This document shows positions 1 to 64,000 of a stretch of DNA of 64,000 nucleotides, in pieces. The notes beneath the pieces were generated by a model. The model had not been told where the DNA came from. It searched no databases and was given only the letters and a program-made list of their open reading frames with translations. The position numbers were made by a program, and so were the translations under genes. This stretch comes from a virus: the IMG/VR virus record IMGVR_UViG_3300049893_000899, positions 31,356-95,355 of that record. One strand, 5' to 3'. The stretch's first letter is position 1. Every line of letters starts with the position of its first letter.

Positions 1-1
1 A

Positions 2-301
2 GGAGATCTTAGAGTTGTTTTACAGCAATTATGCTTCTCTTGTGGTTTATCTCCAGAAGTTTTAAATATGATTGACCTTGAGGTTAGTAGATCTAATCAG
101 TCAAAGTTGTTTAAGGATTCAGATGAAGTTCTTGAAGGAAAATTAACTTACGAGAAAGAAGGGGTAGGTTGCTTTGTTGAACAGACTTCTGACAATTCTT
201 TTGTGTTAAAGAGAAATTCAGACAACAAAGTTTTAAAGAATAAAGCTAGTTTCTTTAAGCCTAGCTTTGATTTTTTAAGAACAATTATTAATTTTAAGTA
301 A
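2..301 (+). CDS. Hypothetical protein, 5'-truncated by window edge
   Basis: The frame of ORF 68..301 is open back to position 2 (GDLRVVLQQLCFSCGLSPEVLNM...). Confidence 0.6.
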   Translation, partial: GDLRVVLQQLCFSCGLSPEVLNMIDLEVSRSNQSKLFKDSDEVLEGKLTYEKEGVGCFVEQTSDNSFVLKRNSDNKVLKNKASFFKPSFDFLRTIINFK

Positions 302-320
302 TTATTTAAACAAGATAGAT

Positions 321-491
321 ATGACATCACAAGAATTATTTGCAGAAATCAATGTTCTTTTTGAACAGCTTCAAAATGAAACAACTAAAAAGAGTAAAGC
401 ATCAAAACTTAGAGCAAGAACTAAGTCAGTACAACTAAGCAAGATGCTTAAAGAATTTAGAGCTTTATCTCGCAAAGAAAGTAAACAATAA
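321..491 (+). CDS. Histone H1-like (Hc1-family) small basic DNA-binding protein, 56 aa; missed by the ORF track
   Basis: Translated by hand: MTSQELFAEINVLFEQLQNETTKKSKASKLRARTKSVQLSKMLKEFRALSRKESKQ. The KA..RAR..S..L.K.LKEFR..S pattern resembles Bacteroidota Hc1 proteins. A terminator follows. Confidence 0.75.
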   Translation: MTSQELFAEINVLFEQLQNETTKKSKASKLRARTKSVQLSKMLKEFRALSRKESKQ

Positions 492-497
492 AAAAAC

Positions 498-528
498 AAA
501 AAGGTTATCGAGAGGTAGCCTTTTTTTT
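498..528 (+). terminator. Rho-independent terminator
   Basis: AGGTTATC-GAGA-GGTAGCCT stem (two G-U pairs, GNRA loop) followed by a T run. Confidence 0.75.
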
Positions 529-539
529 ACTTATCAACT

Positions 540-1202
540 ATGAAACCAACAGAAAAATTATTAGGCTATTATTGGGCTGAAGAGCTCAACGATGTTTTAT
601 TGTCTGAAGAAATGAAGACAACATCAAGATATATCTCTGGAAGAAGAAACTTTGCAAGTGTACTTCCGGAACAACAAGAAGTATTCTCTTTATTCAAAAG
701 ACTTCAGCTAAAGAACATTAGAATTGTATTTATATCTGAAGCTCCAACAAGCACAAAGTCAGCAGCTTCAGGCATAGGATATGCTTCTTTAGATCCGTTT
801 GAAACATATCCTGAAAACAAAGCTTTAATCAATCATATTGAAAAGAACTTCAAAGATGGCATGTGGTTAACTCCAGATAGAGATTTAAAGGATTTAGTTG
901 CTAATGGAATATTCTTCTTAAACCAAGACTTAACTTGCGAAGAAGATAACAGAACGGCTCATAAAGGACTATGGGAATCCTTTACTTCATCTGTTTTGAA
1001 GCTTATTGCTAAAGAAGAAAGACCTATATGCTTTATCCTTTGGGGCCAATCAAATATAGAGTTCTTTGACAAAAATACTAAAGGGTTAGATTTGTCTATT
1101 CACAAAGTGTTTAAGAAAGAAGATATCAAAGAAGAGTCCACTTGCTTAAAAGAAGCTTGCGATTTTGTTGAGAGTTATTACAAACAAAAATTAATAGTAT
1201 AA
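540..1202 (+). CDS. Uracil-DNA glycosylase (family 1 UNG)-like protein with degenerate catalytic motifs
   Basis: IRIVFISEAP~VKVVILGQDP; GIFFLNQDLT~GVLLLNTVLT; AHKGLWESFT~SH..GWE.FT; FILWG~FLLWG. GQDPY and HPSP motifs are absent. Confidence 0.75.
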   Translation: MKPTEKLLGYYWAEELNDVLLSEEMKTTSRYISGRRNFASVLPEQQEVFSLFKRLQLKNIRIVFISEAPTSTKSAASGIGYASLDPFETYPENKALINHIEKNFKDGMWLTPDRDLKDLVANGIFFLNQDLTCEEDNRTAHKGLWESFTSSVLKLIAKEERPICFILWGQSNIEFFDKNTKGLDLSIHKVFKKEDIKEESTCLKEACDFVESYYKQKLIV

Positions 1203-1778
1203 ATGAGTAAGGAAAAGACTAAATTAGCAATGATACATCCATTTGATAGTAGTAAATCAATGACTGTACTTCATCTACTCCAATCTGAAATATGGTTGAA
1301 GCACATGATAGATCAGATTGAATATCAAACAAAAAAGTTTGGATGGAAGCAGAACAAAGAGTTCATGAACAAGACCAAGAACGCTTTGCAATCTATTAGG
1401 TTTTATAATCATTCAATCAGAGTTGACTACAATGATGATGAAATGTATGAGGTTACAGCAAAAGTGTCAGATCAAATCTGCAAAGTAGTAAACCTTTCAT
1501 CAGAAGACAGAGCTAAAGTTTATGAACTCATTGAAGAGCTTACAGGAACGCAAAGTAAGTTCACTACAGACCACACAGAACTAATCAAAGAGTATCTTGG
1601 AAAACTAGACGAAGCAAGAGTTAAGTATTCAAAGATAATAAAACAAGAATGCGTTGGAGCTGTTGTACTTGGAGGTGAGTTCCCTACTGTTGAAGATGCT
1701 ATCAATGCACATAACATATTAGCTAGGCTAAATGTTACATATCAGTATCCAGTTAATTTGATTAGTGAAATTAAATAA
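1203..1778 (+). CDS. Hypothetical protein
   Basis: 191-aa ORF abutting the upstream stop codon. Confidence 0.7.
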   Translation: MSKEKTKLAMIHPFDSSKSMTVLHLLQSEIWLKHMIDQIEYQTKKFGWKQNKEFMNKTKNALQSIRFYNHSIRVDYNDDEMYEVTAKVSDQICKVVNLSSEDRAKVYELIEELTGTQSKFTTDHTELIKEYLGKLDEARVKYSKIIKQECVGAVVLGGEFPTVEDAINAHNILARLNVTYQYPVNLISEIK

Positions 1779-1788
1779 GGCGGAAATT

Positions 1789-1995
1789 ATGAATTACCAA
1801 CAGCAATTAAATTCAATACACAGTTATCTTATGTATAAGAAATTCCCTTATCATAGTTTATCTGTGATACACAGACACCAAGATTTAGGTTTTCACGTTT
1901 TCTTTTCGGATGATGTAAAGGAAATGGTAACTGATGAAATTAAAGAGCATTTAGCTGCTTATGCGTTTCATTGGTCTTTCGTTAAAAGCAATTAA
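1789..1995 (+). CDS. Hypothetical protein
   Basis: ATG at 1789 preferred over the GTG at 1765, which overlaps the upstream gene. Confidence 0.6.
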   Translation: MNYQQQLNSIHSYLMYKKFPYHSLSVIHRHQDLGFHVFFSDDVKEMVTDEIKEHLAAYAFHWSFVKSN

Positions 1996-2013
1996 TATTT
2001 AAAACTATGGCAA

Positions 2014-2134
2014 GACTAACGGTTTGCAGATTGGCGTTGTTGCCACACAAATGTTTAATTGAAACACTAAATTTAATAATATGGAAAATGATAATTTGAA
2101 AACGGAAAGCAATAACGCCAATGTGCTGTTAGCT
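2014..2134. mobile_element. attC-like recombination site 1
   Basis: TAAC(2017)-GGTTT-GCAGATTGGCGTTGTTGC(2026-2043)...GCAATAACGCCAATGTGC(2109-2126)-T-GTTA(2128); arms 16/18 complementary. Confidence 0.7.
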
Positions 2135-2299
2135 GCTGTGCCTGATTGTAAAGATATGGATTACGATAAGGTAAGGGCTATCGGCAAGGAAAAGTATTGT
2201 ATAAAAGGAATAAGCTGTAATTTCTGCGACTTCATGGATAGAGATAGAGGTAAAATAAATAGTTGCGTTCAGGAGTATGTCAAAAGGCATTGCATCTAA
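2081..2299 (+). CDS. Cassette-borne hypothetical Cys-rich protein
   Basis: ATG lies in the loop of site 1; stop codon lies in the TAAC of site 2. Confidence 0.65.
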   Translation: MENDNLKTESNNANVLLAAVPDCKDMDYDKVRAIGKEKYCIKGISCNFCDFMDRDRGKINSCVQEYVKRHCI

Positions 2300-2424
2300 C
2301 GTTTTGCAGCTAACCGAAGTTGGCGATTACGAAGCACAAAAATTCAAATTAAATAAATGTTAAACCGAAGCACAACAGCTCATTTCAGCACTACACCGCC
2401 AATCTTGGTTAGGTGCTGTTATAT
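2294..2424. mobile_element. attC-like recombination site 2
   Basis: TAAC(2297)-GTTTT-GCAGCTAACCGAAGTTGGCG(2306-2325)...CGCCAATCTTGGTTAGGTGC(2397-2416)-T-GTTA(2418); arms 16/20 complementary. Confidence 0.7.
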
Positions 2425-2450
2425 GCTGTGCTTCTCAAATCTTAATTAAA

Positions 2451-2651
2451 ATGACAAAAGGAACTTTTCAAAAAACAGTAGAAAGTGCAGAATACGATTT
2501 TGTTCGTGATAAAGCACAAAGAGAAACGATTGAATTACTTGCTAAGACTTTGATTGAAGTTAGAAAGCACATGACCGCACACATTCCTGAAAAGGTATTT
2601 GATATGGTTGATGATGCACTTTCTAAGTCGGGTTTTCAGCATAGCATATAA
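2451..2651 (+). CDS. Cassette-borne hypothetical protein
   Basis: 66-aa ORF ending in TAAC; bounded by a 14/15-bp inverted repeat (2418-2432 / 2638-2652). Confidence 0.65.
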   Translation: MTKGTFQKTVESAEYDFVRDKAQRETIELLAKTLIEVRKHMTAHIPEKVFDMVDDALSKSGFQHSI

Positions 2652-2670
2652 CTACAATATATACGCAGTT
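2649..2670. repeat. Array-terminal (attI-like) module, copy 1
   Basis: TAACTACAATATATACGCAGTT; 21/22 identical to 5999-6020. Confidence 0.65.
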
Positions 2671-2692
2671 AAACAAATAAACAATTAAGAAA

Positions 2693-3139
2693 ATGAAAGA
2701 AAAAATAAAAGGCTTTTCCGACCCTAGGCTGGTCGGTAGAGAGGTGTATGTTAGGGATGTGAAGATGGTTATTAGTAAAATAAATGATAGCCACACAATG
2801 TGTATAAAAAAAGAGTACGGTATTAATCGTTCATTTCTTCATGATGGAAGGCATACTTCGATTGATTTACTACCTATTTTATCCTTCACACCATACACCG
2901 TAGAAATAAATGAAAACGGTCAAGTAACAATCAAAGGCTACTCGGATGAAATTGAATTAGAATCAGAGGACAAGCCGAAAGAGGGTGATTGTGGTTGGTT
3001 TTGGGATTCTGAATATTGTCGTTATTTTAGGTATGGTACGATTGCAAGAATAAGCTCTGCTTACTATATTGGTACTGCTCCTTACAAAAACTTCTCAAAA
3101 ACATGCCCTGAGTGGATTAAAGAAATTGTAAATAAGTAA
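2693..3139 (+). CDS. Hypothetical protein
   Basis: 148-aa ORF with A-rich leader. Confidence 0.7.
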   Translation: MKEKIKGFSDPRLVGREVYVRDVKMVISKINDSHTMCIKKEYGINRSFLHDGRHTSIDLLPILSFTPYTVEINENGQVTIKGYSDEIELESEDKPKEGDCGWFWDSEYCRYFRYGTIARISSAYYIGTAPYKNFSKTCPEWIKEIVNK

Positions 3140-3142
3140 AAT

Positions 3143-3415
3143 ATGGAAAAAATAAGCGTAAAAGATAATAAAGTTATTTTAACCGTAACGCCACAAGAAA
3201 CTAATAAGTTCTTAGAAAAGGGTACTATTATTTCATGGAATGAAAGTATTAATTTCCTCGAAAACTATAAATCTGATGAAATAGTAGATGTTGTTGATAG
3301 TAATAGTAAAATTGACTTAGAAGCATCTAAAATGCTAAAAAGAATATCTGAGCTAAATATAGAAAAAGAATTGTTAATTAATAAACTATTAGAAACATGC
3401 AAGGAAGAAAAATAA
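3143..3415 (+). CDS. Hypothetical protein
   Basis: 90-aa ORF in a tightly packed run. Confidence 0.6.
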   Translation: MEKISVKDNKVILTVTPQETNKFLEKGTIISWNESINFLENYKSDEIVDVVDSNSKIDLEASKMLKRISELNIEKELLINKLLETCKEEK

Positions 3416-3861
3416 AACACAAAGAAACTGGAGAGGTTTTTATATTCTTACAGTTTGAGGCTTCATCTAAGACTTTAGACGACAACAAACAAGTAGTATC
3501 ATTAGCTGTTATAGTAGAAGATAAAAACGGAAATATTTGTATTTTCTCAGCTAATGATGTGCAATTCGTAAAAGAAGAGCCTATCAAAACAGAAACAACA
3601 GGAATAGACATGATGAAGCATAAAGCGGAATCAATGCCGACCTTACAAAATAGCATTGAAGTGTGGGCGTGTATGGATAGAAGTGGATTTGTTAATATTG
3701 CAGCAAAAAAGAATTTCTATAAAAATAATGAAATTTGGAGCTCTCACGATGAGTTGTTTATGTCAACTAACATAGAAGACTTCATACAAGCATTCCAAGG
3801 CTTATCTTGGAACGATGAAGGACCTAAGAAGTTTAGAATTAGTGTAGAGCCTTTGGGGTAA
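3397..3861 (+). CDS. Hypothetical protein
   Basis: 154-aa ORF overlapping the upstream gene end. Confidence 0.65.
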   Translation: MQGRKIKHKETGEVFIFLQFEASSKTLDDNKQVVSLAVIVEDKNGNICIFSANDVQFVKEEPIKTETTGIDMMKHKAESMPTLQNSIEVWACMDRSGFVNIAAKKNFYKNNEIWSSHDELFMSTNIEDFIQAFQGLSWNDEGPKKFRISVEPLG

Positions 3862-3898
3862 CGAATAAAAGCCGTTTTATTATGGAAAAAACATCATT

Positions 3899-4093
3899 AT
3901 GTTGTTAAAATTATTAAAGAGATTATTCAAATCTAAAACAAAATCAAAAAAAGATTCTAAAACAAAATCAAAAGAAGATGTTTTTATTCTTAGAAAATAT
4001 TGTAGTGGTTGTGATTCTATTCAAGTGCATCACGATAGCCCTTTTGAAGAGCCATTTTGTTATAGATGTTATAATAGACAACATGGGTATTAA
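3899..4093 (+). CDS. Small basic protein with CxxC...CxxC (possible Zn ribbon)
   Basis: CSGC and CYRC motifs; internal 24-bp tandem duplication at 3932-3979. Confidence 0.55.
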   Translation: MLLKLLKRLFKSKTKSKKDSKTKSKEDVFILRKYCSGCDSIQVHHDSPFEEPFCYRCYNRQHGY

Positions 4094-4126
4094 AAAATAA
4101 AAGCCGTTTTACTTAGTAGGACGGTA

Positions 4127-4351
4127 ATGTTAAATTTAAAAGATAAGATTATGGACAACCTAAAATTGACGACACCATTTGTTCCACAGGAACAAAACAC
4201 TATCTTTATTATGCAAGATAATGGCACAAGAGAAATTCTAAAGCTTTGTGGAAACGGAGATATTTTCGTAAAAGGCAGATTAGCAGAAAATGACAAAGAA
4301 GTAGTTGATGCTTTAAGAGAGTTTCTCAAAGGGCAAGGCTTATTAAAATAG
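4127..4351 (+). CDS. Hypothetical protein
   Basis: 74-aa ORF between repeat copies. Confidence 0.65.
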   Translation: MLNLKDKIMDNLKLTTPFVPQEQNTIFIMQDNGTREILKLCGNGDIFVKGRLAENDKEVVDALREFLKGQGLLK

Positions 4352-4408
4352 CCGATAACAAATAAAAGCCGTTTTACTCGGTTTGTAGTAACTTTAAAAT
4401 GAAATAAA

Positions 4409-4684
4409 ATGAGCAACACAACATTAAATTTAAACAGCGTGGGTACAACTACAAGCGTCAGTCTTTGGTCAACACCTGAAAGAGTAGATGTAATTGAAAA
4501 CTCTGATAGTATCGAGTTCGTGTATAAAGAAACTTCAATGATTTCCTACACATCAATTCCAGCACCACCACCACAAGTAAGAGTTTTCAAAATCGTCTTT
4601 TCTTGTGTAGATGGCAAGTGGAATAAATCGGAAAGAATTTATGGTCAAATTGTTCCTGCTGAAAATGAACGATACGTTTTTTAG
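4409..4684 (+). CDS. Hypothetical protein
   Basis: 91-aa ORF between repeat copies, followed by a divergent attI-like module at 4694-4714. Confidence 0.7.
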   Translation: MSNTTLNLNSVGTTTSVSLWSTPERVDVIENSDSIEFVYKETSMISYTSIPAPPPQVRVFKIVFSCVDGKWNKSERIYGQIVPAENERYVF

Positions 4685-4751
4685 CATTGCCTATAACTAT
4701 CAGATATGTGCAACAAACAAATAAAAGCCGTCTTACTAAACGATTAAGAAA

Positions 4752-5243
4752 ATGGAAAAAGTATTAGAAAAATTCACTATTGATGATGTGGAGGTTGGTG
4801 ATGTTTTTCTTCATAAACACAATAAATCAAGATTTACTGTTTCAGAAAAACATAAAGATAAAGGTTATATTCTTTTAAAAAGTTATGGAGCACTTTGGGC
4901 TTTAAGTTTTTACTATTTCGATCTAATTAAAAAAAGTAATAAAACTGAAACACAAACAGAGGAACAATTAATAGAACAACAGCCAACCTCAATAAAATCC
5001 GTCTTATCAGGTATTGACAAGCTTCTAGAATACAAAGAAAGTAAGTATGGCAATGCACTAAACAACGATCGTTTAAAAGTGTTTTCTGGTAAATGCAAAT
5101 TTGGAGATATACTTGACGCAAAACTAAACAGAGTAGCCAACGGAGAAGAGCTACTAAAGAACGATGTTGTAGATATAGCAGGCTATCTAATCCTAACACT
5201 AAGAGAAAAAGGATGGGATGATTTTAGTGAGTTTATGGACTGA
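4752..5243 (+). CDS. Protein with C-terminal DUF1599/Nmad1-like (all-alpha nucleotide pyrophosphatase-like) domain
   Basis: LLEYKESKYGNA...DAKLNRV...DVVDIAGYLIL pattern. Confidence 0.6.
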   Translation: MEKVLEKFTIDDVEVGDVFLHKHNKSRFTVSEKHKDKGYILLKSYGALWALSFYYFDLIKKSNKTETQTEEQLIEQQPTSIKSVLSGIDKLLEYKESKYGNALNNDRLKVFSGKCKFGDILDAKLNRVANGEELLKNDVVDIAGYLILTLREKGWDDFSEFMD

Positions 5244-5639
5244 AAATAAGGCTTAAATTTATGAGATATGACTGAAAAAGAATTGTTAATTGAGTTGTGT
5301 AATAATCTTGAAAAAGAACTCAATCAAAGAGATGGAAAGAAAACGCATAAAGTACAATTACAAAGCGGATTAAAGCCTGAAAACTATTTCGTTCCAATGA
5401 TGAGCATAGGAATAACAAGAAAATCGTATAATGGTGTTAGTATGGCTTGGTTTGTTGAAGTGTGGGTTGATGGAAAATGTATATTCAGAGAATCACATGT
5501 GCCACACAAAACAGAAAAGCTTGAAATAGTTGAAGGATTTTTGATTAAAAGGGTTTTCAGACACATCTTCACATTTGGAGTTATGTCAAGTAAAAAAACC
5601 ATTGATGAACTTGTGTGAATTATGGACTGAAAATAAGGC
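5233..5639 (+). repeat. Perfect 20-bp direct repeat TTATGGACTGAAAATAAGGC flanking ORF 5268..5618
   Basis: Copies at 5233-5252 and 5620-5639. Confidence 0.9.
5268..5618 (+). CDS. Hypothetical protein (apparently inserted gene)
   Basis: 116-aa ORF between 20-bp direct repeats. Confidence 0.7.
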   Translation: MTEKELLIELCNNLEKELNQRDGKKTHKVQLQSGLKPENYFVPMMSIGITRKSYNGVSMAWFVEVWVDGKCIFRESHVPHKTEKLEIVEGFLIKRVFRHIFTFGVMSSKKTIDELV

Positions 5640-5641
5640 GG

Positions 5642-5774
5642 CAATAACGGTTTGAAGCTATGCTTAGTTGCGGACTTAAATAACAAAATTTTTAATTAAC
5701 AACAAAATATAATAAAATGGAAAAAGTATCAGATTACAACGGAACTCCGCAATTAGGCATAGCTGCAGTTAGCA
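5642..5774. mobile_element. attC-like recombination site 3
   Basis: TAAC(5645)-GGTTT-GAAGCTATGCTTAGTTGCGGA(5654-5674)...TCCGCAATTAGGCATAGCTGC(5746-5766)-A-GTTA(5768); arms 18/21 complementary. Confidence 0.7.
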
Positions 5775-6001
5775 GCCGTTTTAATTTCGGACAAGAGGTG
5801 TGGTTCTTAAATGGACGACACATTATGAATGGTAAGATAGAAGCTGTTAGAGGGCAGAAACATTGCCTATACGAACACACCGACATTGAATTGGAAGTTT
5901 ACCATACAAGCGGTGAAATAGGGTGTAAGTTTTGGGTAAAAGATGAAGATTGTTTTGAAAGCAGACAAGCGTTGATAGATGCGGTCTTAAATGGCTGCTA
6001 A
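5717..6001 (+). CDS. Cassette-borne hypothetical protein (possible SH3-like beta barrel)
   Basis: ATG in the loop of site 3; FNFGQEVWFL...GKIEAV; ends in GGCTGCTAAC, complementary to GTTAGCAGCC at 5768. Confidence 0.7.
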   Translation: MEKVSDYNGTPQLGIAAVSSRFNFGQEVWFLNGRHIMNGKIEAVRGQKHCLYEHTDIELEVYHTSGEIGCKFWVKDEDCFESRQALIDAVLNGC

Positions 6002-6020
6002 CTATAATATATACGCAGTT
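5999..6020. repeat. Array-terminal (attI-like) module, copy 2
   Basis: TAACTATAATATATACGCAGTT. Confidence 0.65.
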
Positions 6021-6070
6021 CAAACTAAATAAGGCGGCAATAACTGCCGTCTTACTAAAAATAAATTATC

Positions 6071-6457
6071 ATGAGCGAATTTAGAATAGATTACTTTGAA
6101 CTTATGTTCTTAGCAGAATCAGTATCACCAAAAGGACCTATTGCACGGTCAATGTGCTTTGATAGCTTCTCTGATAAGCACTACCACCACATGAATGAGG
6201 GACAACGATTGCAGTTCTTTAATTACGTGCAAAAGCAACCTTACTTTACACTAGAAGACGAGCAATGCAGGCACTTTTACGCAAGATTTAATCCACAGAA
6301 TCAATACAAAGTTTCTTGCTTCTACGATGGAAAGGCACAAACAGTAGATTGCTATAGATTTGAAGACGAGTATAGGGTATCTAGGAATAGATTTATAAAT
6401 AGTGACTACATTAAAAGTATCGTTAGGGTTTACGATGGAGTGGTTATCAAGCAATAA
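6071..6457 (+). CDS. Hypothetical protein
   Basis: 128-aa ORF between repeat copies; its stop codon lies inside the repeat. Confidence 0.7.
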   Translation: MSEFRIDYFELMFLAESVSPKGPIARSMCFDSFSDKHYHHMNEGQRLQFFNYVQKQPYFTLEDEQCRHFYARFNPQNQYKVSCFYDGKAQTVDCYRFEDEYRVSRNRFINSDYIKSIVRVYDGVVIKQ

Positions 6458-6497
6458 GGCGGCAATAATTGATGTCTTACTTAAATAATATTAATCT

Positions 6498-6986
6498 ATG
6501 GCAAATATTTGTGATGTATACGTTGAGTTCTACAACGTGAAAGATGAACAAAAACATCTTATTACTGAAGAAAACTTCAAGAATGAAGAAATCAAAACAA
6601 ACAACGACGGTTGGGTTGATATAGAGTTTGTTAATGAAGGACTAAACACGTTATCTATGTCCTCAGCGTGGTCAGCTCCTATTTCTTGGTTTGAAGGTTT
6701 TTGCGCTGAACATGGCTTAGATGGAAGAATGTATTTCTATGAGCCTGGATGTTGTTATCATGGATATGCTGACGTTACAGATGGCCACATTCAAACAACA
6801 TACTATGATAATAATTTTGAATATCTTTACCTACATAATAACGAAGGCTTCTGGGATGAAGTAAATTATTTCTTAGAAGAAGATATGCTAGAAGAAGAAG
6901 AATGGAATGAAAGAGTTCTTAAGTATATTTCTCTTGAAGATAAGAAAACATTAATTGAAATGATTGAAAAACAAAAAAAGGGATAA
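6498..6986 (+). CDS. YubB/DUF1281-like ferredoxin-fold protein
   Basis: SAWSAP..WF...YFYEPGC.Y.G motif. Confidence 0.55.
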   Translation: MANICDVYVEFYNVKDEQKHLITEENFKNEEIKTNNDGWVDIEFVNEGLNTLSMSSAWSAPISWFEGFCAEHGLDGRMYFYEPGCCYHGYADVTDGHIQTTYYDNNFEYLYLHNNEGFWDEVNYFLEEDMLEEEEWNERVLKYISLEDKKTLIEMIEKQKKG

Positions 6987-7008
6987 CTTCGGTTATCCCT
7001 TTTTTTTT
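6973..7008. terminator. Bidirectional Rho-independent terminator at the convergence of the accessory and virion modules
   Basis: A7-GGGATAAC-TTCG-GTTATCCC-T9. Confidence 0.9.
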
Positions 7009-7024
7009 ACAAGACCAACGCTTA

Positions 7025-8158
7025 TTATAAAGCTTTAATCCAAAGTGTAGCTGATAATGATTTAGGTGATATACCAACAGGTTGTTGAGTATAGTTCCCT
7101 TGAAATCCAGTTTCACCATTTATAGTATGGTCATGATTACCTGCATTCTTAGTCATTGTTGCTGAAGTAGCAGTTGAAGGACCCCCTAATGACCAAGATT
7201 CAATACTAGCACCTGTTTGATTGGTATCAGCATTTCCATATCGAAACCCTTGATGGTTATGATCCCCACTTATACCAATCTCTATATTAGCTCCATTTGC
7301 ATCAACAGAGTGTTTATGTAAAGGTAATTGATTACCAGCTAACATAACAGTATCAGACCCATCTAAAGTGCCTATTGATCCAGTATTGTATCTTAAGAAT
7401 CTATCTGAGGCATTTGGCAAGTTAAACGTAGTAGTTCCATCTCCAGCCCCATAAGTAGCTCCAATAACAGCAAACAAAGCTGAATAAGTGGTTCTTGAAA
7501 CAGCAGCACCATCAGCTTTAAGAAATTTACTATTTGGAGCAATTGAACCAGAGTAACTTAAATATGTTCCAACAGGAAGGAATTCAGTTATATCAATCGT
7601 TCCGCCAGACACAGTTCCTAAAGCCTCTTCAACAGCAGTAACTCTAGTGTTTAAATCTTGTATCTGATTTAATATGTCTACAATAATGTTTTGAATATTA
7701 TTCAAAGAGTTTCTTAACCAAGTTGTAAAGCTTGTAGTTAATTTAACATTAAATATGTTTCTTTTGTCGCTATTCTCAGAAACAGTATCTATTGAAACAT
7801 CAACATTAAACCCAGAATAGTCTACAACATAATCTTGAGAATCAAATACCAAGTCATCTCCCTCTACATTTGTTACTTGAGGTAATTGATGTGGCTGAAC
7901 GAAAATAATTCTTTCATATACTTTATCAAGATAACTCTTAGCATTAGTATTGGTTGCAGCAATGCCTAATCCAGATAGTTCTTCTAACTTCTTAGTAGAA
8001 TCATACTCTTTAGCTAAGTCGTTTACTTCTGTCTTGAAAGTAACAGAATCAACTAACTCTCTAAACGTTGTCTCGTCAGGTCTATCACCATTCAAGAATC
8101 TATTGCCTCTTTTTGTGGCCTTCTTTGTAACTTCAAAGAAATAACTTTTTAACTTCAT
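7025..8158 (-). CDS. Phage tail-collar domain fibre protein
   Basis: LPVGTYLSYSGSIAPNSKFLKADGAAVSRTTYSALFAVIGATYGAGDGTTTFNLP; downstream HxH motifs; coiled coil upstream. Confidence 0.9.
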   Translation of the reverse strand: MKLKSYFFEVTKKATKRGNRFLNGDRPDETTFRELVDSVTFKTEVNDLAKEYDSTKKLEELSGLGIAATNTNAKSYLDKVYERIIFVQPHQLPQVTNVEGDDLVFDSQDYVVDYSGFNVDVSIDTVSENSDKRNIFNVKLTTSFTTWLRNSLNNIQNIIVDILNQIQDLNTRVTAVEEALGTVSGGTIDITEFLPVGTYLSYSGSIAPNSKFLKADGAAVSRTTYSALFAVIGATYGAGDGTTTFNLPNASDRFLRYNTGSIGTLDGSDTVMLAGNQLPLHKHSVDANGANIEIGISGDHNHQGFRYGNADTNQTGASIESWSLGGPSTATSATMTKNAGNHDHTINGETGFQGNYTQQPVGISPKSLSATLWIKAL

Positions 8159-20567: not shown

Positions 20568-20959
20568 TATAATATCGTTACAGTTATATCTTCTTCAGAA
20601 CTAATAACTACAAGACATGAGTTATCATTAAGCTCAATAAAATCTTGAACACCTATCAACTCTCTTGTTGCAGTTAATTTAAAAGAAACTACAATATCAT
20701 TAGAGTTTAAATTATGATTTATTGTTTTGGTAAAATATCCAGTATAGTCTCCAGAGCCTACATCCCAAGATGTAATGTCCTCAGAGTATTTGTTTACTGT
20801 TGGAGGTGGTGTTATTTGAACAATTAGTTCAGATAACAACTTTTCTAAATCACTCAACAATTTCTCTTTTGAGTGACCTTTGTTCTCCTTGTTAGATACG
20901 TTGTCACGTATTCTAACAAGGGTAACCATTAATTCTTGTATTGTTTTAGTAGTTTCCAT
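20567..20959 (-). CDS. Hypothetical virion protein with HNLN motif
   Basis: TINHNLNSNDIVV motif, commonly seen in phage fibre proteins. Confidence 0.55.
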   Translation of the reverse strand: METTKTIQELMVTLVRIRDNVSNKENKGHSKEKLLSDLEKLLSELIVQITPPPTVNKYSEDITSWDVGSGDYTGYFTKTINHNLNSNDIVVSFKLTATRELIGVQDFIELNDNSCLVVISSEEDITVTIL

Positions 20960-23900
20960 TTTCAAGTCCGTTTATTTTGTTCTTAAGGTGTCCATCCATA
21001 AATAAACGGACATAATTGTCATGACTAACAATTCTTCCTAGATCTTTCGGGAGCTTATCAATATCTCCAGTGAATAAATCACCTGCTAATTTAGCTAAAT
21101 CTGATATAAAACCAAAACTTTGAGATACATTATTAAAACTTCTAAGTAATTCTCCTGGGTTAGCGAAGTATGTTAACTCATTGAATACTCTAAGTGCTAT
21201 ATACGGACTAAGGAATCGTATGTTTTCAATAAAGCCTCCTTCTTCATCATCTCCACCTGGAGCAACCAATGAAGAAAGAAGATACAACCCATAGAATGAA
21301 CCAGCAAAAATACCTGTCCATCTTAGCCTACTTGCGTTATAAGCTATAATTTCAGATACTTTATCATCATTTTTTCCAACAGCGGCTTTAACTCCTCCCA
21401 ACACTTTCTCTGCGGTACTACCTTCAGTTTTTCTATATCCTTCCATTATCTGAATTATCTCAGCAGTAACCATCCCCATTATGGCTTCATCTCCAAAAGC
21501 GTTTCCATTAATAAGGTCTTCATCATATTCTCCTGTTTCCGGATTGTAGAGAGTATCAAAATCTTTAAGAGCATATTGCCATCCAGCAAAAGTCATCATC
21601 ATCTTTCTAGGTAAGAATTTTCTTAATGACATTAAAGCTGGACCAGCTACTTTCTTATCCATCTCAGACAAGCCTCTATTTCCATAATAACCCTGAGTGT
21701 TAGATATTAAGTCAGAAATATTAAGTCCTATTTCAGAAACCATGTTATTATAAGATCTTTCATCTATCTCTCCTTTATCGTTTCTCATTATTCTACTTGT
21801 AAAGTTAGAAGTTGTAGCAAACACCTTTGGGCTTATAGATATCCTTCTTGACTTTTCGTCAAATATAATAGAATCATAAAGACTAACAGCTTCAGAGATT
21901 TCAGGAGTAGTTGTTCCATCTGCTTTAAGATATTCTCCATTCTCAGCAATACATCTTATTCCTTTAAGTTTAGCAATCGTTAACACAGTAGAAATCATGT
22001 GTTCACCAACAGCAAAAGGCATATGGCCAGCAGCGCCAAAGAAAGCTCTAACAGTTTTGTCATTCATTATATCTTGAACAAAAGCCTCATTGAAGTTTAA
22101 TCTTGAATTAAAGAATACCGTTATTGCTGTAAGCTTATCTGTTCTCATAGCATCATCAGCAGAGTAATTCTTCATTGAATCAACTATGTTCTTAAAGTAT
22201 TCAGTAGAAGCTTCTCCTATAAGATTAGAATCTAAAAGGTTATTAGCCTTGAATGCAATCATTGAAGACACCGTTCCAGCAGTAGCATTCACTAAACCAC
22301 CTTCAATATTTCCATTAAGTTTTGCTTTTGCAGAAATAGAAGTAATTGTTCCAAGGATCTTACTTATTGAATATCCTTTGCCAAACTGCATATCTTCTCT
22401 TCTCTTACCAAGAACATATTCATCAAATACAGATTCAGCAGCTTTAAGTCTTTGGCTGTTTCCTTTAGTGTTAAAAGCCTTATTGAAGTATTTTGTAATA
22501 ACTTTCTTTCCTCCTTCTTTTATGTTTATGTTCTGTTCTCTTAATAAAGCTTTAAGAGTTTCTCCCATAAACGCAGCTTTACTCATTTCTTCAAAGTTAA
22601 TGGCGCTATGATAGTTCATCATTAATATTGATAATATATCTTTAGATCTATCTTCAATCTTAATTCCTTTGTCTCTAAACTTAACAGGAGGTCTTTGAAT
22701 AGGTTCTCCATTAAATGTAGATCTTCTAACAATAGCCTCTTCATTAGACGCTCTCTCTTCTGCATCATTAACATAATCTAAGTCTTTAGATTGTTGATTC
22801 TTGATGGACTCATTAATTCCTTCTTTGAAGCCTTCTTTTAGTTTCCCTTCAGCATATAATTCATGAGATGTCTTTCCAACAAAAGGAAGCTCGTTATTAA
22901 TAAGCATATCTCCTTTTTCAAGATAACCATTAGACTTGTGTAGTAATATTTCAAACCCATCAGCTATCTTTTTCTCTTCAGTAGTAAGAGCAGCCCATTT
23001 AGCGGACTTATATTTAGGTAAAGGAATAAGTCTCCCTTTTCCATCAGTCTTTTTGGCGTCTTTCTCATAGTTTTCTTTTTTAAATATATCTATTTGCTTA
23101 CCAACATAATAAGTGCTTTTAATAGTCTTCTTTTGTTGTTCATTCAAATCCATATATTCTCTATATTGAGCCTTATCATATTCCCCAGACTCAAATCTAT
23201 CGTTTATTTGTTTAGCTTTAAGGTCGTACTCTTCTAAAGCCTTTTTGTAGTTCTCCATACCGATAGCTATATATCGTTGTCTTTCAGCTTCAAGACGCAT
23301 CCAGTCATACTCAGATACTAAGCATAGTCTATCTTCATCATTAACTCTCTGAACATAGAAGAACTTCTCATTAACCTCTTCATAGTTAACCCCTAATGTT
23401 TTATTCCATCCATTCTTATTTACATAATCTCTATACATAGAAGCAAGGTTGTCTTTTCCCCTAAACTCTTCTTGGTATTTAATTCTAACGTTATCTTTAG
23501 CTTTCTCTAAGTACGCCACAAAAGGAGTAATTATAGAGTCGTTTATCATCTTCTTATCGCAAAATGCCAACACTAAAGAAGAAATATCTCTTTCGTCTTC
23601 AGATAATCTTTTATAGATCGTATTATATCTTTCGTATAACCATTTCTCTTTATTCTTCTGGAAAGCTTGAACACCAATGTTAATTAGATTATCTCTTACA
23701 GCCTTGTCTTTAAAAGAACCTATTCCTCCTTTTATCTTTCTGAACAAGTCTCTAGCCTGCATCATTCTAACATTGATATGACCTCTATCTTCAAAAGCCA
23801 AAGTAAAAGCAAGAACTTTCTTAGAACTCTTCTCTAAAGATGAATTAGCTTCAGATATCTTTCTTTCAATAGAACGAAGAGCCTCGCTTAAGTCATTAAG

Positions 23901-26900
23901 AGTCTGTTTATGATATCTTTTTGCAAGTAAACGGTTGATTATATTTTCAAGAGAAGTCATATTTTCTTCGCTTGTTTCAACGTTAGTTTTTGTTCCTTCA
24001 AAGTCAATAACACCAGCATCAAGACCTATAGTTTTATTTATTAAATCACTAAGCTCAGCATAGCTAGGATTATCTGGCAAGGTAAGAGTGTCTTCTATAT
24101 TTTTAGTTGTGCTATTGTCCCCTGAAAGTCTTTTTACAATACCAACAATCTTTCTGTACTCCTCTTTTATTGTAGCCAATTCAGAATCAATCTTAGACTG
24201 TAATGCTGTATCTGGAATTCCACCATCTAATGAAGCTTGGATGTTTTTAAATCTCTTCAAAGAAGCAAAAATATCCCCAACATGAACACTTAAGTTAGCT
24301 ATTTCAACATCCTCAGTACTGCCTTTCGAAGCAAACTCAAGCTTAGGAGATATTTGTTTAGATATCAAATTAAACACACCAAGAATACTTATAGCCTTCT
24401 TAATCTGAGTAAGCTCGTCCCATCTTTCTTGTTGGTTTGCATGTTGAGCATAAAACTGCTCTAATGTCATTTTCCCTGGATTTGTTCCATCAATATCAAC
24501 ATCGTCAAGTATTTGTCTTAATGGGTCTCTAGTGATACTTGATATTAAGTCTGTTATTACTATGCTGTCATTATAAACGTCCATAGCCATTTCAACAAGT
24601 TGTCTCAAAACATAGAAGTCAGAAGCTTTACCAATCTCTGATCTTATCTGATCAATTGTTTCAACCATCTTGTTGATGTTTTGACTTCCGGAACTTGTGT
24701 CTATTCCAGACTTACTGGCAGCACTAACAGCTTCAGAAAGCATCTTGTTCAATCCATCCATAAATCCTTCAAGATCAACGTTTTCATCGTCTCTTATTGA
24801 GGCTATTAATGTATTAGTTGCTATATCTAAAGCTTCTTTCTTGTAGTTGTATTCAAAGTTACCAGCGTTATCAGACCCTTCATATCTTTCTTTAGCCTCT
24901 CTCATTGGTCCATCAGACTTAAAGTTAAATCTGTTTTCCATCACTTCATCTATATTGATGGTAGGCATATTATTGTATATGCTGCTATTAAGAACCTCGT
25001 TAGCCATTAAAGCAATAGCGTCATAGTCTAAACCAAGTTTCTTCTTGATGATATTGTAAACCTTGTTAACCCAGTTTCTTATTTTGCCAAATATAGATTC
25101 TTCAGCATTTTCAAATATCTCGGTACCTTTAAGACCTAAAGCAACTGCAAGAACTTCTTTTCTATGTAACTCAGAACCTTCTTTTAATTCAGGGTATCTA
25201 TCTGAAACTCTATCAGCTATATCTGTCTGCATAGCTTGGTCATACGCAGCCATTGCCTCAGAAGTATAAGCTCCACCAGATATATCAATGAATACGTGTG
25301 ATAACTCGTGTATAACTGTGTCTCTACTTAAATATTCCCTAGATCTAAGTTTTACAACAGGAAGTCCATCAACATAAGTAACTGATCCCCATGCTTTCAT
25401 ATTAGGGTCTATAATCACTTGATTAGCTCCCAACTTAGCCTCAAGAAGACCTATCTTTCTTGCTGTTCTTTTCTCGTCGTCTATCTTATCAAACTCAGAC
25501 ATCTTATTGTAATAGTCTTGATATTCATCTTGAACACTACCTGATTGATTCTTAAGAATAATATTGTCAATAAATTGATCAGCAAAGAAAATAGGACTTT
25601 CTTCTATCATTTTACCGGCAAGATCTAAAGCTGTACTATAACCAATTCTATTTAGAAACTTAATTGTTACAGGAATTACATTTGAAGAACCAGAAACTGG
25701 AGTTCTTCCAGTCATGAAATAATTCAATAGAACACCAATCTTAATTGGCATTGGAGCATCGTCAAATGATTCTGATATTTCATTAGATAAATCACTATGA
25801 ATTTCTCCTCTATTAAACTTTAGAGCTAATTTAAACTTGTCAGCAGGAGTCAGGTCTTCTAAATTATTTGAAGCCAATATAGCCGCTCTAGCTTCTTTAG
25901 ACGCTTCTCCTCCAGTTTTTGATATAGCTATAAGCCTATAAACATTCTGAACTTGTCTTCTTGTTCTTTCTTTTTCTCTATTCTTTTCGTAGTTCTTTTT
26001 TATTACTTGAATAACCTTGTTATCAGTATTAACATTTCCTTCAATAACAGCAACAAAGTCCTCTATCATTCTGTTGTTCTTATTTGAATCAGAAAACACT
26101 TTAGAAGCAAAGAACTTATTGTAGACATAAGAAGCCATCTCCTTCTCTACGTTTATTAATCCTCCAATACTTTTTATTGCACTGTAAAACTTTTTACGAT
26201 TAGCTATATTTTCTTTAGATGTGTCGTTTAAAATTGTAGAGATATATGTAGTTACTGTTTCGTTTGATACAATAGAAATTGAATTAAGAAGTACTGAAAG
26301 TTTTGCAAAAGAGTTTCTTAATGAACCTAAGTAAGTGTTGTTACTTAAATAGTTTTTGCTCATGTTTGCATTATTCTTGTATAGTCTATTTCTCAATTCA
26401 AAAGAACTTCTTTGAGAAAGTTTGTCGAACTTTAATTCAGTAGCTTGAGTTGATAGTTCTGAAGATAGAGAATTTAACTCATGATACATTTTTAACATAC
26501 TTATAATATAAGACATATTAATAGTTGTCATTGAGCCGGAATTAAAATCTTTTATGTCTTTAGCTAAAGAGTCAGCAGAAACATCAACTTTAACATATTT
26601 AAATTTCTTCATTTTAAAGTTATATTCTGCTGCTTTACTAAAAGCAGCCAAATCATTACCAGAAAAATCAATACCTTTTGAAGTTAAATATTGAATCATT
26701 CCATTTTCTCCATACTTACTATAAGCAAATATTACAGGATGATTTAAGTATAACATTGCTCTCATTGGATGAACTCCTGCTCTTATCATCGCAAATAACA
26801 TTCCAGAAGTAGTCTTATTTATATTAACATAAGAAAGGAATGGATCCTTTGCCATATCAACGAATCCATTAAGGAAAGAAGAGATAGCGTCAACAATAGA

Positions 26901-29900
26901 AACAGCAGTATTTTTAACTCTTTCTCTAGCGTAAGAAAGAACTTCAGTTTTTGCGTTTCCTTGATCTTGGCTAACATTGAACTTTGAAGCTATCATTGAA
27001 AGTATTGGATTCTGATATCCATAACCAATCTCAACCGCAGCCATATTCTGCTGGTTAGCAGTTGCTCCAATACCATCTTGTCCACCCATATTGTCACTTT
27101 TACTTCTAAGCTGAGTGATTGGGTTCATTATATCCAAGAACGACTTATTATTAATAGCATCTAAATCTCTTCCTTGAAGTTCTAATATGTCTTTAGTGTA
27201 ATCATCTTTTAACTCTGAAGCATCAACAGGCGCCATCTTATCTAAGTAAGCTTCAGTATTAGAGGAGTTAAGCATATTATACCAATGATTGAAAAGTTCA
27301 TCGTGCATCTGAGATATAACTCCAGCAGAACTTCCATCAGATTGGTTTGAGTTTCTTATTACGAATTTACCTTGTTTGTTCTTATAAACCTTTATAGATT
27401 TAAATATTAAGAACATCTTATCAATATCATAGTCAGAACCAGTCTTACCCGTTATTGATGGATATAATATTATACTATCTCCAAGATGCGGAGGAAGTAT
27501 ACCTACAATATCAAGGCTATCTATTGAAGATAGTTTTTGTGTAGGAATACGGTAACCTATAGCCTTATTGAAAACATCTTTATTGTTCTTCATTAAATCA
27601 GTTATCTCTTCATAAGACATCTTCTCTAATCCAGGGATGTTCTTGAAGAAACTCAAAGGAACTAAACACTCTCCAGCTTTTCCAGGAAGAGGGTGCATTA
27701 GCTTCGCGGAAGTTCTTCCATCTAAGAACATAATAGAAGACTTTTCTTCTTCACTCATAGAGTTAAGTCCAACAGGAGAAACCTGAACAGCAGAACCTCC
27801 AGGCATAGAAGGGTTAACAACCCCTTTCTGGAAAGAAGATATTACAGATGAAATTATTTGATAACTAGAAGGCCCAACTTCATCTAAGTTGAAAGGAGTT
27901 ATTTCGCTACTAGTTTTTTCTTTAATAAAATCAACAAGCTCTTTGTTGTTCTTTATTGCGTCTACCTTTAATAGTTTTCTTTTAATCCCTTCATTGAACT
28001 TCTTAACGTCTTTTATATTCCCACTATCAAAGTCCAACCCTAAGTTGTTCATAAACTCATAAGTAAGTCTTTCTGTTATTGCAGCTTCAATAGCATCAGT
28101 CTCTTCAAGGTATTTCTCTCCAGTATATTCAACTCCATTCTTGGTGTAGTAAACAAGTCCAGACTTAACGTTCTTCATAAGCTTTTTGAACTGAATCCCA
28201 ATAGAACGTAAAGATTTCCCCTCAGTAATCTTGTTTGGAGTAACTTGTTGCATACCGTGGTATCTATTCTCAAGTTCAATAGCAAACAAATCTTTACCAT
28301 TAATAGCCTCACTAAAGTCAATAGCTCCTTGTGATCCCATCTTAACAGCAGAATCAAATAAAACTTCATCAATACCATTCTTTTCCATATTCTCCAATAA
28401 AGAAGCTAATTCAGTTCCTTTATGGATAGCTGGGATTATTGGAATCATTGAATACTTAAGCATTGTAGGAACGGCAAGTAAGTGATTTAAAGATGCTGTT
28501 CCATCTTCATTAATGTTTGTTGTTCTTGAAGATATAGAATAATGGAAAGGCTTTTGAGGCCCAAACAAGTTTAATGCTTGTTGTTTTTCGTAGAAAGTAG
28601 GGACATGATTCTTGTCTTTAAGTTTCTCAACTAAAGTATTGTTAGATTCATCCCAATCTCCTTGACTTCTTCTGAAGTCAACATATCTATCTAATGTAAC
28701 AAATCCTTGCGCATCTGCTTCATTGTTTTTTAAATAAGGATTATATAACGCCTTGGCTTCAGCTTCAGACATTAACTTAGACTCAACGGCTGTTTTAACC
28801 AAGAAGCTATACAGCCCACCAGAATCTCTTTCTATGTCATTCAACACTGCAATTTTAAATGTAGGCTTGTTGAATATATAAGATTCTTTTGAAGGAGAAA
28901 CTAAAGCTTTATATCTTTTAACAATCTCTACAGCAGACTTAAAGAATCCTGGATGTATAGCGTTAGCATTAAACTGTCTCATATTTAAAGCTGTGTCGAT
29001 AAGAGTTACAGCTTCAAAGGCCACCATCCCACTCATATTTCTACTAGCTAAAGATCCGAAGTCAAACATCTCTTCTCGCATCTCTTTAACAGCAGAATCA
29101 ATTATGTCATTCACAACCTTATCTAATATAGCAGAATTACTCTTGTTGAATACATGCTTACCGTCTTTTGAGTCAAAGATAGCATTAACCTCTTCTTGAG
29201 AACTAAAGTCTAAATCAAGTATTGAAGAATTTTTATATTTTTTGTCGTAATGTTTAATTCCAATAAACTTAGTAAAAGGCATGTTTTTAGCAGCCTCATA
29301 AGCTTTGTATGCCTCTATTTCTGCCTCAAGGAACTTAATGATCTCCGTCTTAATAAATTCAGAGGCAAAAGCTCTTATGTTGCTTCCTGGATTCTTTCTT
29401 CTATAATCAACATACTCTGTTAAAGACACAGAATAGAATCTTTCAATGCCAGCATCAGCAGGTTGTAACATCCTCAAAGGATATATAATACTTCCTGTTG
29501 GATTTCCATTAACGTCAAACTTACCGTTAAACACAGGGCTTCTTAAAGCATTAATTTGTTCTTTGTAGTAAATTGAAACATCTTCAGTTATCGTGTTTTC
29601 TGAAGTATGCTTATTTTTTTCTTCACCTCTAGTCTTGATTATCTGAGAAAAGGAAAGTACTTTTTGAAAGAAACTCATTCCTCCTTTATAAGCAGAAGAA
29701 AATGCGTCTTCACTTATTCTTCCATATAGATTCAATATGTTTCCACCAGGCTTTCTTTTGTTTGCCCCATTCTTAACATCAGAAATAAATCTGTTTGATG
29801 AAGCTTCTTTGTTTATTGAGTAAACATTTTTACCTTCAGCTCCAATAGTATTTTCTTCATGTAAGCTACCAGAGATAATATCTTGTATTTGAGATATCTT

Positions 29901-63676: not shown

Positions 63677-64000
63677 TCGCTTCTCTCTCTCTTCTTTCTT
63701 CTAAACTACCATAACTAAGTCTACATAAAGCAGTGAAGTCCATTTTGTCCCTCTCTTCTTCTGATAACTTATAAAACTCAGGTCTAGCGTGCTTAACACG
63801 CCTTCTTAATGTCCACACTCCAAGGCCAGGTAATATTATACTCTTAACCTCTGGATCGTCCATCATCTTAGTTATCAAGTCAAACTGAGCCATAAACACT
63901 AAGTCTATATCCTCCGGCTTTAACTTAGTACCATCAGCACTAACTCCACCAAGTCTCTCAATAACTCTCTTATAAATTTTTAATCTTTGCTGTGTTAACA
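63663..64000 (-). CDS. HU/IHF-like small protein, 5'-truncated by window edge
   Basis: Frame is open from 63899 to the edge (LTQQRLKIYKRVIERLGG...); ILPGLGVWT resembles the HU I.LPGFG.F motif. Confidence 0.5.
   Translation of the reverse strand, partial: LTQQRLKIYKRVIERLGGVSADGTKLKPEDIDLVFMAQFDLITKMMDDPEVKSIILPGLGVWTLRRRVKHARPEFYKLSEEERDKMDFTALCRLSYGSLEERREREANEKS

Follow-up and report, generated by a model that had tools for sequence, protein, structure and literature searches.

Why do short runs of mini-genes in a crAss-like phage end in the same 22-nt sequence, and is this sequence a place where new gene cassettes enter? A sequence-only reading had proposed that the last cassette of every mini-array is followed by the same non-hairpin module, that this module is an attI-like primary integration site, and that the phage thus has multiple small landing pads rather than one integron. 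We have examined this in a stretch of 64,000 nucleotides ("the window", positions 31,356 to 95,355 of the 95-kb IMG/VR record IMGVR_UViG_3300049893_000899). The repeated module was found as had been observed, whereas the interpretation was supported only in part: the attI-like reading is supported for the class of sites to which the module belongs, and activity in this phage and the existence of several landing pads remain inferences.

The module copies in the phage genome

Copies 1 and 2 of the module (21/22 bases identical; Table 1) were the only two matches with up to three mismatches in the window and in the whole record, whereas 100 shuffles gave 0. The diverged copy 3 matched 15 of the first 19 bases, as had been claimed, and all three copies were followed by AAAC(A/T)AAATAA (2671-2680, 4715-4724, and 6022-6032). 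Three details should be added. The TAA of TAAC is the stop codon of the preceding ORF in copies 1 and 2, whereas in copy 3 the ORF stops at a TAG 12 nt earlier, in frame with that TAA. Each copy is preceded by the flank that also precedes the hairpins (consensus ATTGCnnM before TAAC, obtained from 128 hairpins), and the copies follow cassette ends at 2652, 4697 and 6002. Finally, the claim that the module closes every mini-array holds for the runs 2017-2670 (two hairpin cassettes) and 5645-6020 (one), whereas the middle copy follows an ORF with a cassette-type end but no long hairpin.

Table 1. Features of the three module-bearing regions (positions in the 64,000-nt window; scores from a matrix built on 15 foreign modules, ranks among 1,028 TAAC sites of the phage genome).
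Position	Strand	Feature	Observations
2017-2131	+	Hairpin 1 (115 nt, TAACGG...GTTA)	Start codon of ORF 2081-2299 in its loop; pattern match and family membership; same 114-115-nt class in other phage contigs
2297-2421	+	Hairpin 2 (125 nt)	Opens cassette 2, which runs to the TAA at 2649-2651; covarying stem
2451-2651	+	ORF of 66 aa, last gene of run 1	Stop codon is the TAA of the module's TAAC; no Pfam or PHROG family
2641-2652	+	Cassette-end flank plus TAAC (ATAGCATA TAAC)	Left arm of the inferred simple site; inferred crossover at TAA|C, from the flank consensus and alignment with foreign sites
2649-2670	+	Module copy 1, TAACTACAATATATACGCAGTT	TAAC, six variable bases, ATA, TAC, GCAGTT; 9.5 bits, rank 2
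2671-2680	+	Tail AAACAAATAA	Shared by the three copies
4409-4684	+	ORF of 91 aa preceding copy 3	Cassette-type 3' end (TAG CATTGCCTA TAAC)
4694-4714	+	Module copy 3 (diverged), TAACTATCAGATATGTGCAAC	Right arm TATGTGCAA mirrors left flank TTGCCTATA (7 pairs and 1 G-T of 9); 7.9 bits, rank 3
5645-5771	+	Hairpin 3 (127 nt)	Start codon of ORF 5717-6001 in its loop; covarying stem
5717-6001	+	ORF of 94 aa, only gene of run 3	Stop codon is the TAA of the module's TAAC; no family found
5999-6020	+	Module copy 2, TAACTATAATATATACGCAGTT	10.7 bits, rank 1
6021-6032	+	Tail CAAACTAAATAA	Followed by a small GC hairpin at 6030-6054

The module is not a hairpin arm. The hairpins continue after TAAC with GKTTTGCAG in 128 of 128 copies, whereas the modules continue with TAYAAT ATA, which ruled out the truncated attC arm that had been named beforehand as a refuting case. 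No stable fold was found at the module, and the symmetry between inverted arms ranged from 5 to 9 of 10 across sites, being good in copy 3 and weak in copies 1 and 2 (5-7 of 10). A scar, in which the inner part of a hairpin site was deleted so that the TAAC flank became joined to the right flank, is very unlikely. The last 11 bases of the module (TATACGCAGTT) do equal the right flank of some hairpins in loci L124 and L134, and whole-hairpin loss occurs (locus L183 against L192, 140 nt). However, the modules share their own signature at fixed spacing across bacteria and phages and have a fixed place beside a recombinase gene (see below), which random deletions would not give, and none carries the GKTTTGCAG arm.

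The exact 21-mer also stands in two unrelated phage contigs without long hairpins, with no homology to this phage beyond 23 nt, and it is therefore not strictly tied to a preceding hairpin cassette. It was absent from species-representative bacterial genomes, so that no host was identified. A search of IMG/VR with the 15-mer core gave 77 loci, nearly all coding or chance; only the contexts of loci L003/L005 and L004 extended to the full module, and L030 (one mismatch) was judged compatible with chance. A search through the 220-aa neighbour protein gave no close relatives, positions 1-8000 matched only tail-fibre fragments among cultured phages, and Rfam on 1800-7100 gave only sub-threshold chance hits, such as miRNA precursors on hairpin 3. 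The type A and type B repeats after the modules could not be fitted into the site model.

The hairpin family and an array-linked recombinase in other genomes

The three long hairpins of the window belong to a covarying TAAC...GTTA family of about 126 nt, present in more than 120 IMG/VR contigs and more than 120 Bacteroidota genomes (both lower bounds). TAAC/GTTA and GCAG/CTGC are invariant, and 14 of 24 stem pairs show compensatory changes, as is proper to attC sites, which are imperfect hairpins with conserved R boxes, variable sequence and conserved structure. The same G-T pairs occur in phage and bacterial copies despite opposite gene strands, which points to DNA rather than RNA folding.

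A PF00589 recombinase lies next to the array in Pedobacter, and homologues occurred in 15 bacterial and 7 phage loci, always on the same side of the array. In 14 of 17 recombinase-bearing loci, a non-hairpin module of the form TAAC-N6-ATA-N3-GC lies between the array end and the recombinase gene. A first, crude profile of all non-hairpin continuations after the flank mixed hairpin variants with modules and was uninformative, and it was replaced by this recombinase-anchored set. A matrix trained only on 15 such foreign modules ranked the three copies of the window 1st to 3rd of 1,028 TAAC sites in the phage genome. In 102 untrained phage loci, matrix hits lay within 2.5 kb downstream of a hairpin on its strand 22 times, in contrast with 2 upstream and 2 and 1 on the other strand. 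The recombinases lack the marks of an IntI-type integrase with its specific extra domain: they scored 153-207 bits with the integron-integrase model TIGR02249, below its curated cut-off of 265 and matched in two stretches; the best model was XerA/integron-integrase NF040815, at about its cut-off, and the nearest solved structures were XerA, then IntI4 in two stretches.

Orientation differs between bacteria and phages. In the bacterial loci the recombinase gene is co-directional with the cassette genes and the module lies after its 3' end, on the strand opposite to the genes, whereas in phage contigs the cassette genes and the recombinase gene lie on the other strand relative to the hairpins, with start codons inside the hairpin loops. 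This bears on the possibility that the module is a promoter or other expression signal of the downstream gene, conserved because a host or phage factor reads it, its place at cassette ends being secondary. In favor of this, the module is always intergenic and on the gene strand, 5 to 51 nt before the next ATG, it lies upstream of the recombinase gene in phage-type loci, and copy 2 contains TATAAT. However, no sigma-70-like site was called at any of the three copies, the region had fewer hits than shuffles, and TAnnTTTG, the Bacteroidota -7 box, was absent from the three spacers. The position in bacterial loci, the variable distance to the ATG, and the junctions described below, which fall exactly at the edge of the module, also speak against it. 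We consider this reading improbable, although dual use, as in attI1, is not excluded.

Two junctions were informative. The phage contigs L203 and L157 are 99.9-100% identical around the site, and L157 has a 783-nt cassette (hairpin plus N6_N4 methylase) inserted exactly between the TAA of the old cassette and the module. Contigs from another metagenome (X3) matched 2296-2416 and 2412-2585 of the window with 0 mismatches but carried unlike DNA before 2296 and after 2652, where cassette 2 goes on, after the C of TAAC, into the arm of a different hairpin and not into the 22-mer. Both junctions thus fall within TAAC, which is invariant in modules and hairpins. Small-share SRA runs (X2 and X4) gave only short, partly diverged pieces, from which no habitat claim is made.

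What the module most likely is

We consider it most likely, although far from certain, that the 22-mer is the non-hairpin, attI-like partner site of an integron-like cassette system shared by Bacteroidota and their phages, in which the hairpins of about 126 nt would act like attC. In this view, a phage cassette starts with the hairpin, has its start codon in the loop, and ends with ATTGCnnM-TAA, and the module forms a simple site with a left arm (the end of the last cassette), a central region of about 9 bp beginning at TAA|C, and a right arm of the form ATA-N3-GC. A Xer/XerA-like tyrosine recombinase would exchange strands at TAA|C, so that a new cassette would land between the last cassette and the module. 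The analysis showed the module class with its fixed place and polarity, its place beside the recombinase gene in other loci, one natural insertion at such a site, and the junction at base 2652 in the window's own cassette. In contrast, binding, cleavage and recombination of the module by the recombinase are inferred, as is the use of the three copies in this phage, with the enzyme supplied by the host or a co-resident element.

Some results weigh against this. The phage is complete by CheckV and has no tyrosine recombinase, so that here, unlike in the other loci, the module is not adjacent to such a gene; records of other module-bearing contigs had none either, though most are fragments. No allele of this phage with or without a cassette at a module was found, and its nearest relatives lack both hairpins and module. 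The recombinases of the other loci score below the integron-integrase cut-off and are nearer to XerA than to IntI4, the inverted-arm symmetry is weak in copies 1 and 2, and the exact 21-mer stands alone, without long hairpins, in two unrelated phage contigs. The copies might therefore be inactive relics, once attI-type sites, that came in with array fragments by ordinary recombination between phages, with no cassette traffic in this phage. All repeat types are confined to one 4.5-kb accessory region, direct repeats of 18-20 nt flank neighboring genes, which suggests homologous exchange, and copy 3 is diverged. On the other hand, two copies are 21/22 identical and the 21-mer is letter-for-letter the same in two unrelated phage contigs, which is not expected for drifting relics, and an orphan module in recombinase-less contigs (L157) did receive a cassette recently. 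We regard this reading as possible but unlikely.

Integrons are held to be rare in Bacteroidota, where IntegronFinder 2.0 reports only In0 elements and one complete integron, in Salinibacter, and phage examples are few. Here a hairpin-and-simple-site system with its own recombinase family appears in hundreds of Bacteroidota and phage sequences, and the 22-mer would be the piece that says where new genes enter. If active, it gives lytic phages a site-specific way to swap small accessory genes, including anti-restriction methylases; the exact module sequence could serve as an address linking a phage to the host whose recombinase reads it, and it offers a short, testable substrate for a new recombinase-site pair. 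A more far-reaching possibility, which remains doubtful, is that Bacteroidota and their phages share a large, so far unrecognized integron-like system run by Xer/XerA-like recombinases. Bacteria would keep cassettes (possibly defence genes) in one orientation and phages a separate pool on the other strand, with start codons inside the hairpin loops and often DNA methylases as cargo, whereas virulent phages such as this one would carry only the landing sites and borrow the host's recombinase to pick up counter-defence genes during infection.

Comparison with related systems

Like the attI sites of integrons (such as attI1 of class 1), the module class is a non-hairpin, putative simple site at one fixed end of a cassette array, next to the recombinase gene, which shares the AAC/GTT core with the hairpin sites and beside which a new cassette was seen to have entered in one case (L157). 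It differs in that the presumed partner enzyme is Xer/XerA-like, in that this genome has three copies and no recombinase, and in that no DR1/DR2-type accessory repeats were shown. Chromosomal integrons of the "inverted integrase" group, whose integrase gene points into the array, resemble the bacterial loci in gene orientation but not the phage contigs. attC clusters without integrase (CALIN) have been described in virulent phages (Qi et al. 2023, PMC9892861), likewise with hairpin recombination sites and methylase cassettes in lytic phages lacking an integrase, including a Polaribacter (Bacteroidota) phage. That work tested attC sites with IntI1 and does not describe this hairpin family, its Xer-like enzyme, the inverted gene orientation or orphan attI-like modules, and hairpin 2 found no match in the cultured-phage collection.

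Xer/dif sites and dif-flanked modules share with this system a Xer-type recombinase and a site with two short inverted arms (here inferred) around a central region of several bp, whereas here one partner site is a long folded hairpin, arrays are polar, and the enzyme is array-linked rather than the housekeeping Xer. The promoter-stem-loop repeats between small genes of T4-type phages are also repeated intergenic sequences flanking small accessory genes in a plastic phage region, but they act through homologous recombination and carry promoters, whereas a dedicated recombinase family, exact TAA|C junctions and structure covariation were found here.

The three copies of the module and their genomic setting

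The sequence-only reading had placed three copies of a non-hairpin sequence, one of them diverged, at the ends of short cassette runs, and this observation was confirmed, the two exact copies and the diverged third copy lying where they had been located. No other copy with up to 3 mismatches was found in the 95,355-base record, and shuffled sequences gave none. The TAA of TAAC was the stop codon of the ORFs preceding the copies at 2649 and 5999, whereas in the third copy a TAG twelve bases earlier, in the same frame, ended the preceding ORF. Homology between copies 1 and 3 extended from about 2633 to the next ATG, so the repeated unit is a whole intergenic module.

The record corresponds to a crAss-like phage, whose terminase, portal, and major head proteins matched PHROG families, the head protein being 43% identical to human-gut crAss-like phages. 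The first 4,835 bases of the record recurred at its end, so the unit genome is 90,520 bases, whereas IMG/VR lists the record as linear without end repeats. It has no tyrosine recombinase. All repeat types seen near the module were confined to the tail of the rightward operon of small genes.

Coordinates of the features considered (window positions unless another sequence is named)
Feature	Position	Remarks
Terminal repeat of the record (G000:C1)	1-4835 and 90521-95355	second copy at window 59166-64000
Region holding all repeat types near the module	1995-6500	tail of the rightward operon
Long inverted repeat (hairpin 1)	2017-2131	
Long inverted repeat (hairpin 2)	2297-2421	
Mini-ORF starting in the loop of hairpin 2	2357-2449	30 codons
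ORF before module copy 1	2451-2651	
Module copy 1	from 2649	matrix rank 2, 9.5 bits
Further repeat types AATAAAAGCCGTYTTAC and AAGGCGGCAATAACTGCCGTCTTAC	3859-4737 and 5631-6481	
ORF before module copy 3	4409-4684	
Module copy 3, diverged	from 4694	matrix rank 3, 7.9 bits
Region of the ORF flanked by direct repeats	5232-5639	ORF 5268-5618
Long inverted repeat (hairpin 3)	5645-5771	
ORF before module copy 2	5717-6001	
Module copy 2	from 5999	matrix rank 1, 10.7 bits
Very large ORF	20946-32132	3,728 codons
Adjacent methylase cassettes, phage contig L157	8888-9601 and 9667-10665	
140-nt difference between phage contigs L183 and L192	L183:10398 and L192:5615-5755	

A hairpin family and its associated recombinase

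The three long inverted repeats of the window share the ends TAACGKTTTGMAG and TGCWGTTA. This pattern was found in at least 120 loci of IMG/VR and in at least 120 loci of species-representative genomes, where nearly all titles corresponded to Bacteroidota. Copies were mostly 124-128 nt long. In 38 aligned copies, 14 of 24 stem pairs displayed compensatory changes, in up to 24 of 38 sequences per pair, whereas TAAC/GTTA and GCAG/CTGC never varied. An outer stem continued into the flanks, with ATTGCnnM before TAAC and KnnGYnGT after GTTA. With the hairpin written TAACG...GTTA, gene orientation was opposite in phage contigs and in bacterial genomes among the IMG/VR and GTDB loci examined (L116-L355): the neighboring genes lay on the same strand in phage contigs (107 of 124 upstream and 104 of 122 downstream) and on the opposite strand in bacterial genomes (71 against 17 upstream and 105 against 4 downstream). 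The same G-T pairs were kept in both sets, which fits folding of one DNA strand better than an RNA structure. In phages the start codon of the next gene usually lay in the loop. In the window, the mini-ORF that starts in the loop of hairpin 2 reads through its right arm, and the same mini-ORF and the following ...AAGCCGTTTTTCTTCAC... were kept in a subfamily of hairpins in many contigs.

In Pedobacter glucosidilyticus, a 481-aa protein with PF00589 (2.8e-42) was found directly beside a three-hairpin array. Homologues at 38-62% identity occurred in 15 of about 120 bacterial loci and in 7 of 120 phage loci. In hairpin orientation the gene was always to the right of the array, and its strand was flipped in accordance with the orientation of the neighboring genes (minus strand in 9 of 10 bacterial loci and plus strand in 7 of 7 phage loci). 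The best NCBIfam model was XerA/integron-integrase, at about its cut-off, whereas the integron-integrase model stayed below its cut-off and matched in two stretches; the nearest solved structures were XerA, followed by IntI4. Thus, the system seems to work like an integron, but the enzyme does not fulfill the criteria for IntI.

Phage-borne attC clusters and integrons have been reported previously, with methylase cassettes and a Polaribacter phage among them (PMC9892861), whereas IntegronFinder 2.0 found almost no integrons in Bacteroidetes (PMC9024848). Literature searches for crAss-like phages with attC, and for a Xer-type integron-like system in Bacteroidetes, found nothing on this family, although absence from the literature searched is not proof of novelty.

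A module class between array end and recombinase gene

Between the last cassette end and the recombinase gene, 14 of 17 loci presented TAAC followed not by a hairpin arm but by six variable bases, ATA, three bases, and GC; one example, in the locus L220, reads TAAC ATACAATATATACAGCAACC. A position matrix was built from these 14 sites plus one more (from the phage contig L203), without any window sequence, and was run over all 1,028 TAAC sites of the phage genome. The three window copies obtained the three highest ranks, against a background mean of -9.4 bits and sd of 5.8. In 102 non-redundant phage loci not used for training, hits of 6 bits or more were located within 2.5 kb downstream of a hairpin on its strand 22 times, in contrast with two upstream, and two and one on the other strand. 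Many of these hits were close to the form found in the window, such as TAAC TCGTTTATATACGCAATT in the phage locus L116. The right part of the module mirrors the cassette-end flank (5-9 of 10 bases), giving a putative simple site of two arms around a central stretch that starts at TAA|C, with a symmetry that was clear in copy 3 and weak in copies 1 and 2.

A deletion scar would explain the 11 bases shared with some hairpin flanks, but it does not explain the fixed signature, spacing, and place of the module. The possibility that the module is a promoter is weak, since no sigma-70-like hits were obtained at the modules, TAnnTTTG was absent from the spacers, the distance to the ATG was variable, and in bacteria the module lies on the strand opposite to the genes; dual use is still possible.

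Cassette junctions at the module and neighboring repeats

The phage contigs L203 and L157 were 99.9-100% identical on both sides of such a site. L203 reads cassette end, TAAC, and module, whereas L157 has 783 extra bases exactly there, comprising a hairpin, an ORF, and a new cassette end. The ORF is an N6_N4 DNA methylase (2e-16), and so is the older neighbor, so that two adjacent cassettes of L157 both encode this type of enzyme; the bacterial array in the locus L356 holds a PLD-like protein with a helicase-associated domain. Neither of the two records, nor three other records searched with them (two of which carry such a module), holds the recombinase, though most are fragments. As regards the window itself, contigs of a wastewater sequencing run (X3) matched 2296-2416 and 2412-2585 without a mismatch but presented unlike DNA before 2296, and after 2652, the C of TAAC, they continued with GGTTTGGCGG..., another hairpin arm. 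Cassette 2 is thus a unit that occurs in another context, and the 22-mer begins at its recombination junction.

No allele of this phage with a cassette gained or lost at a module was found, and five large relatives (head protein 59-68% identical) had neither hairpins nor module. The exact 21-mer also occurred in two unrelated phage contexts (the contigs L003/L005 and L004, with their metagenome twins), where it was intergenic and on the gene strand, without long hairpins and with no other homology to this phage. These may be empty sites, and the letter-for-letter identity might suggest a shared reader, both points being conjecture on present evidence. None of the bacterial representative genomes searched carried the 21-mer. 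Relic status of the modules is the main alternative, because the phage lacks the enzyme.

The sequence-only reading had interpreted the module as an attI-like primary integration site providing several small landing pads, and this was supported only in part. All these factors taken together (position, polarity, an independent matrix test, one natural insertion, and the junction of the window's own cassette) support an attI-like site at the level of the module class, whereas present activity in this phage and the existence of several landing pads remain inferences.

Other variation was found around the modules and hairpins. Two phage contigs that were 98-99.7% identical (L183 and L192) differed by 140 nt corresponding to a whole hairpin with its flanks and no gene, and this difference was not bounded at TAA|C. 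In the window, ORF 5268-5618 was flanked by an 18-20-nt direct repeat (ATGGACTGAAAATAAGGC), and in run X3 the upstream gene continued after 5252 straight into the GC hairpin repeat, so this gene is absent there. Two further repeat types were present, one (AATAAAAGCCGTYTTAC) after four small genes and the other a GC hairpin (AAGGCGGCAATAACTGCCGTCTTAC); both follow modules 3 and 2, and an X3 contig of a diverged relative joined 3863 to 4715. Finally, the single 3,728-codon ORF lay among other very large minus-strand ORFs (1281, 1473, and 1444 aa), as in crAss-like phages.
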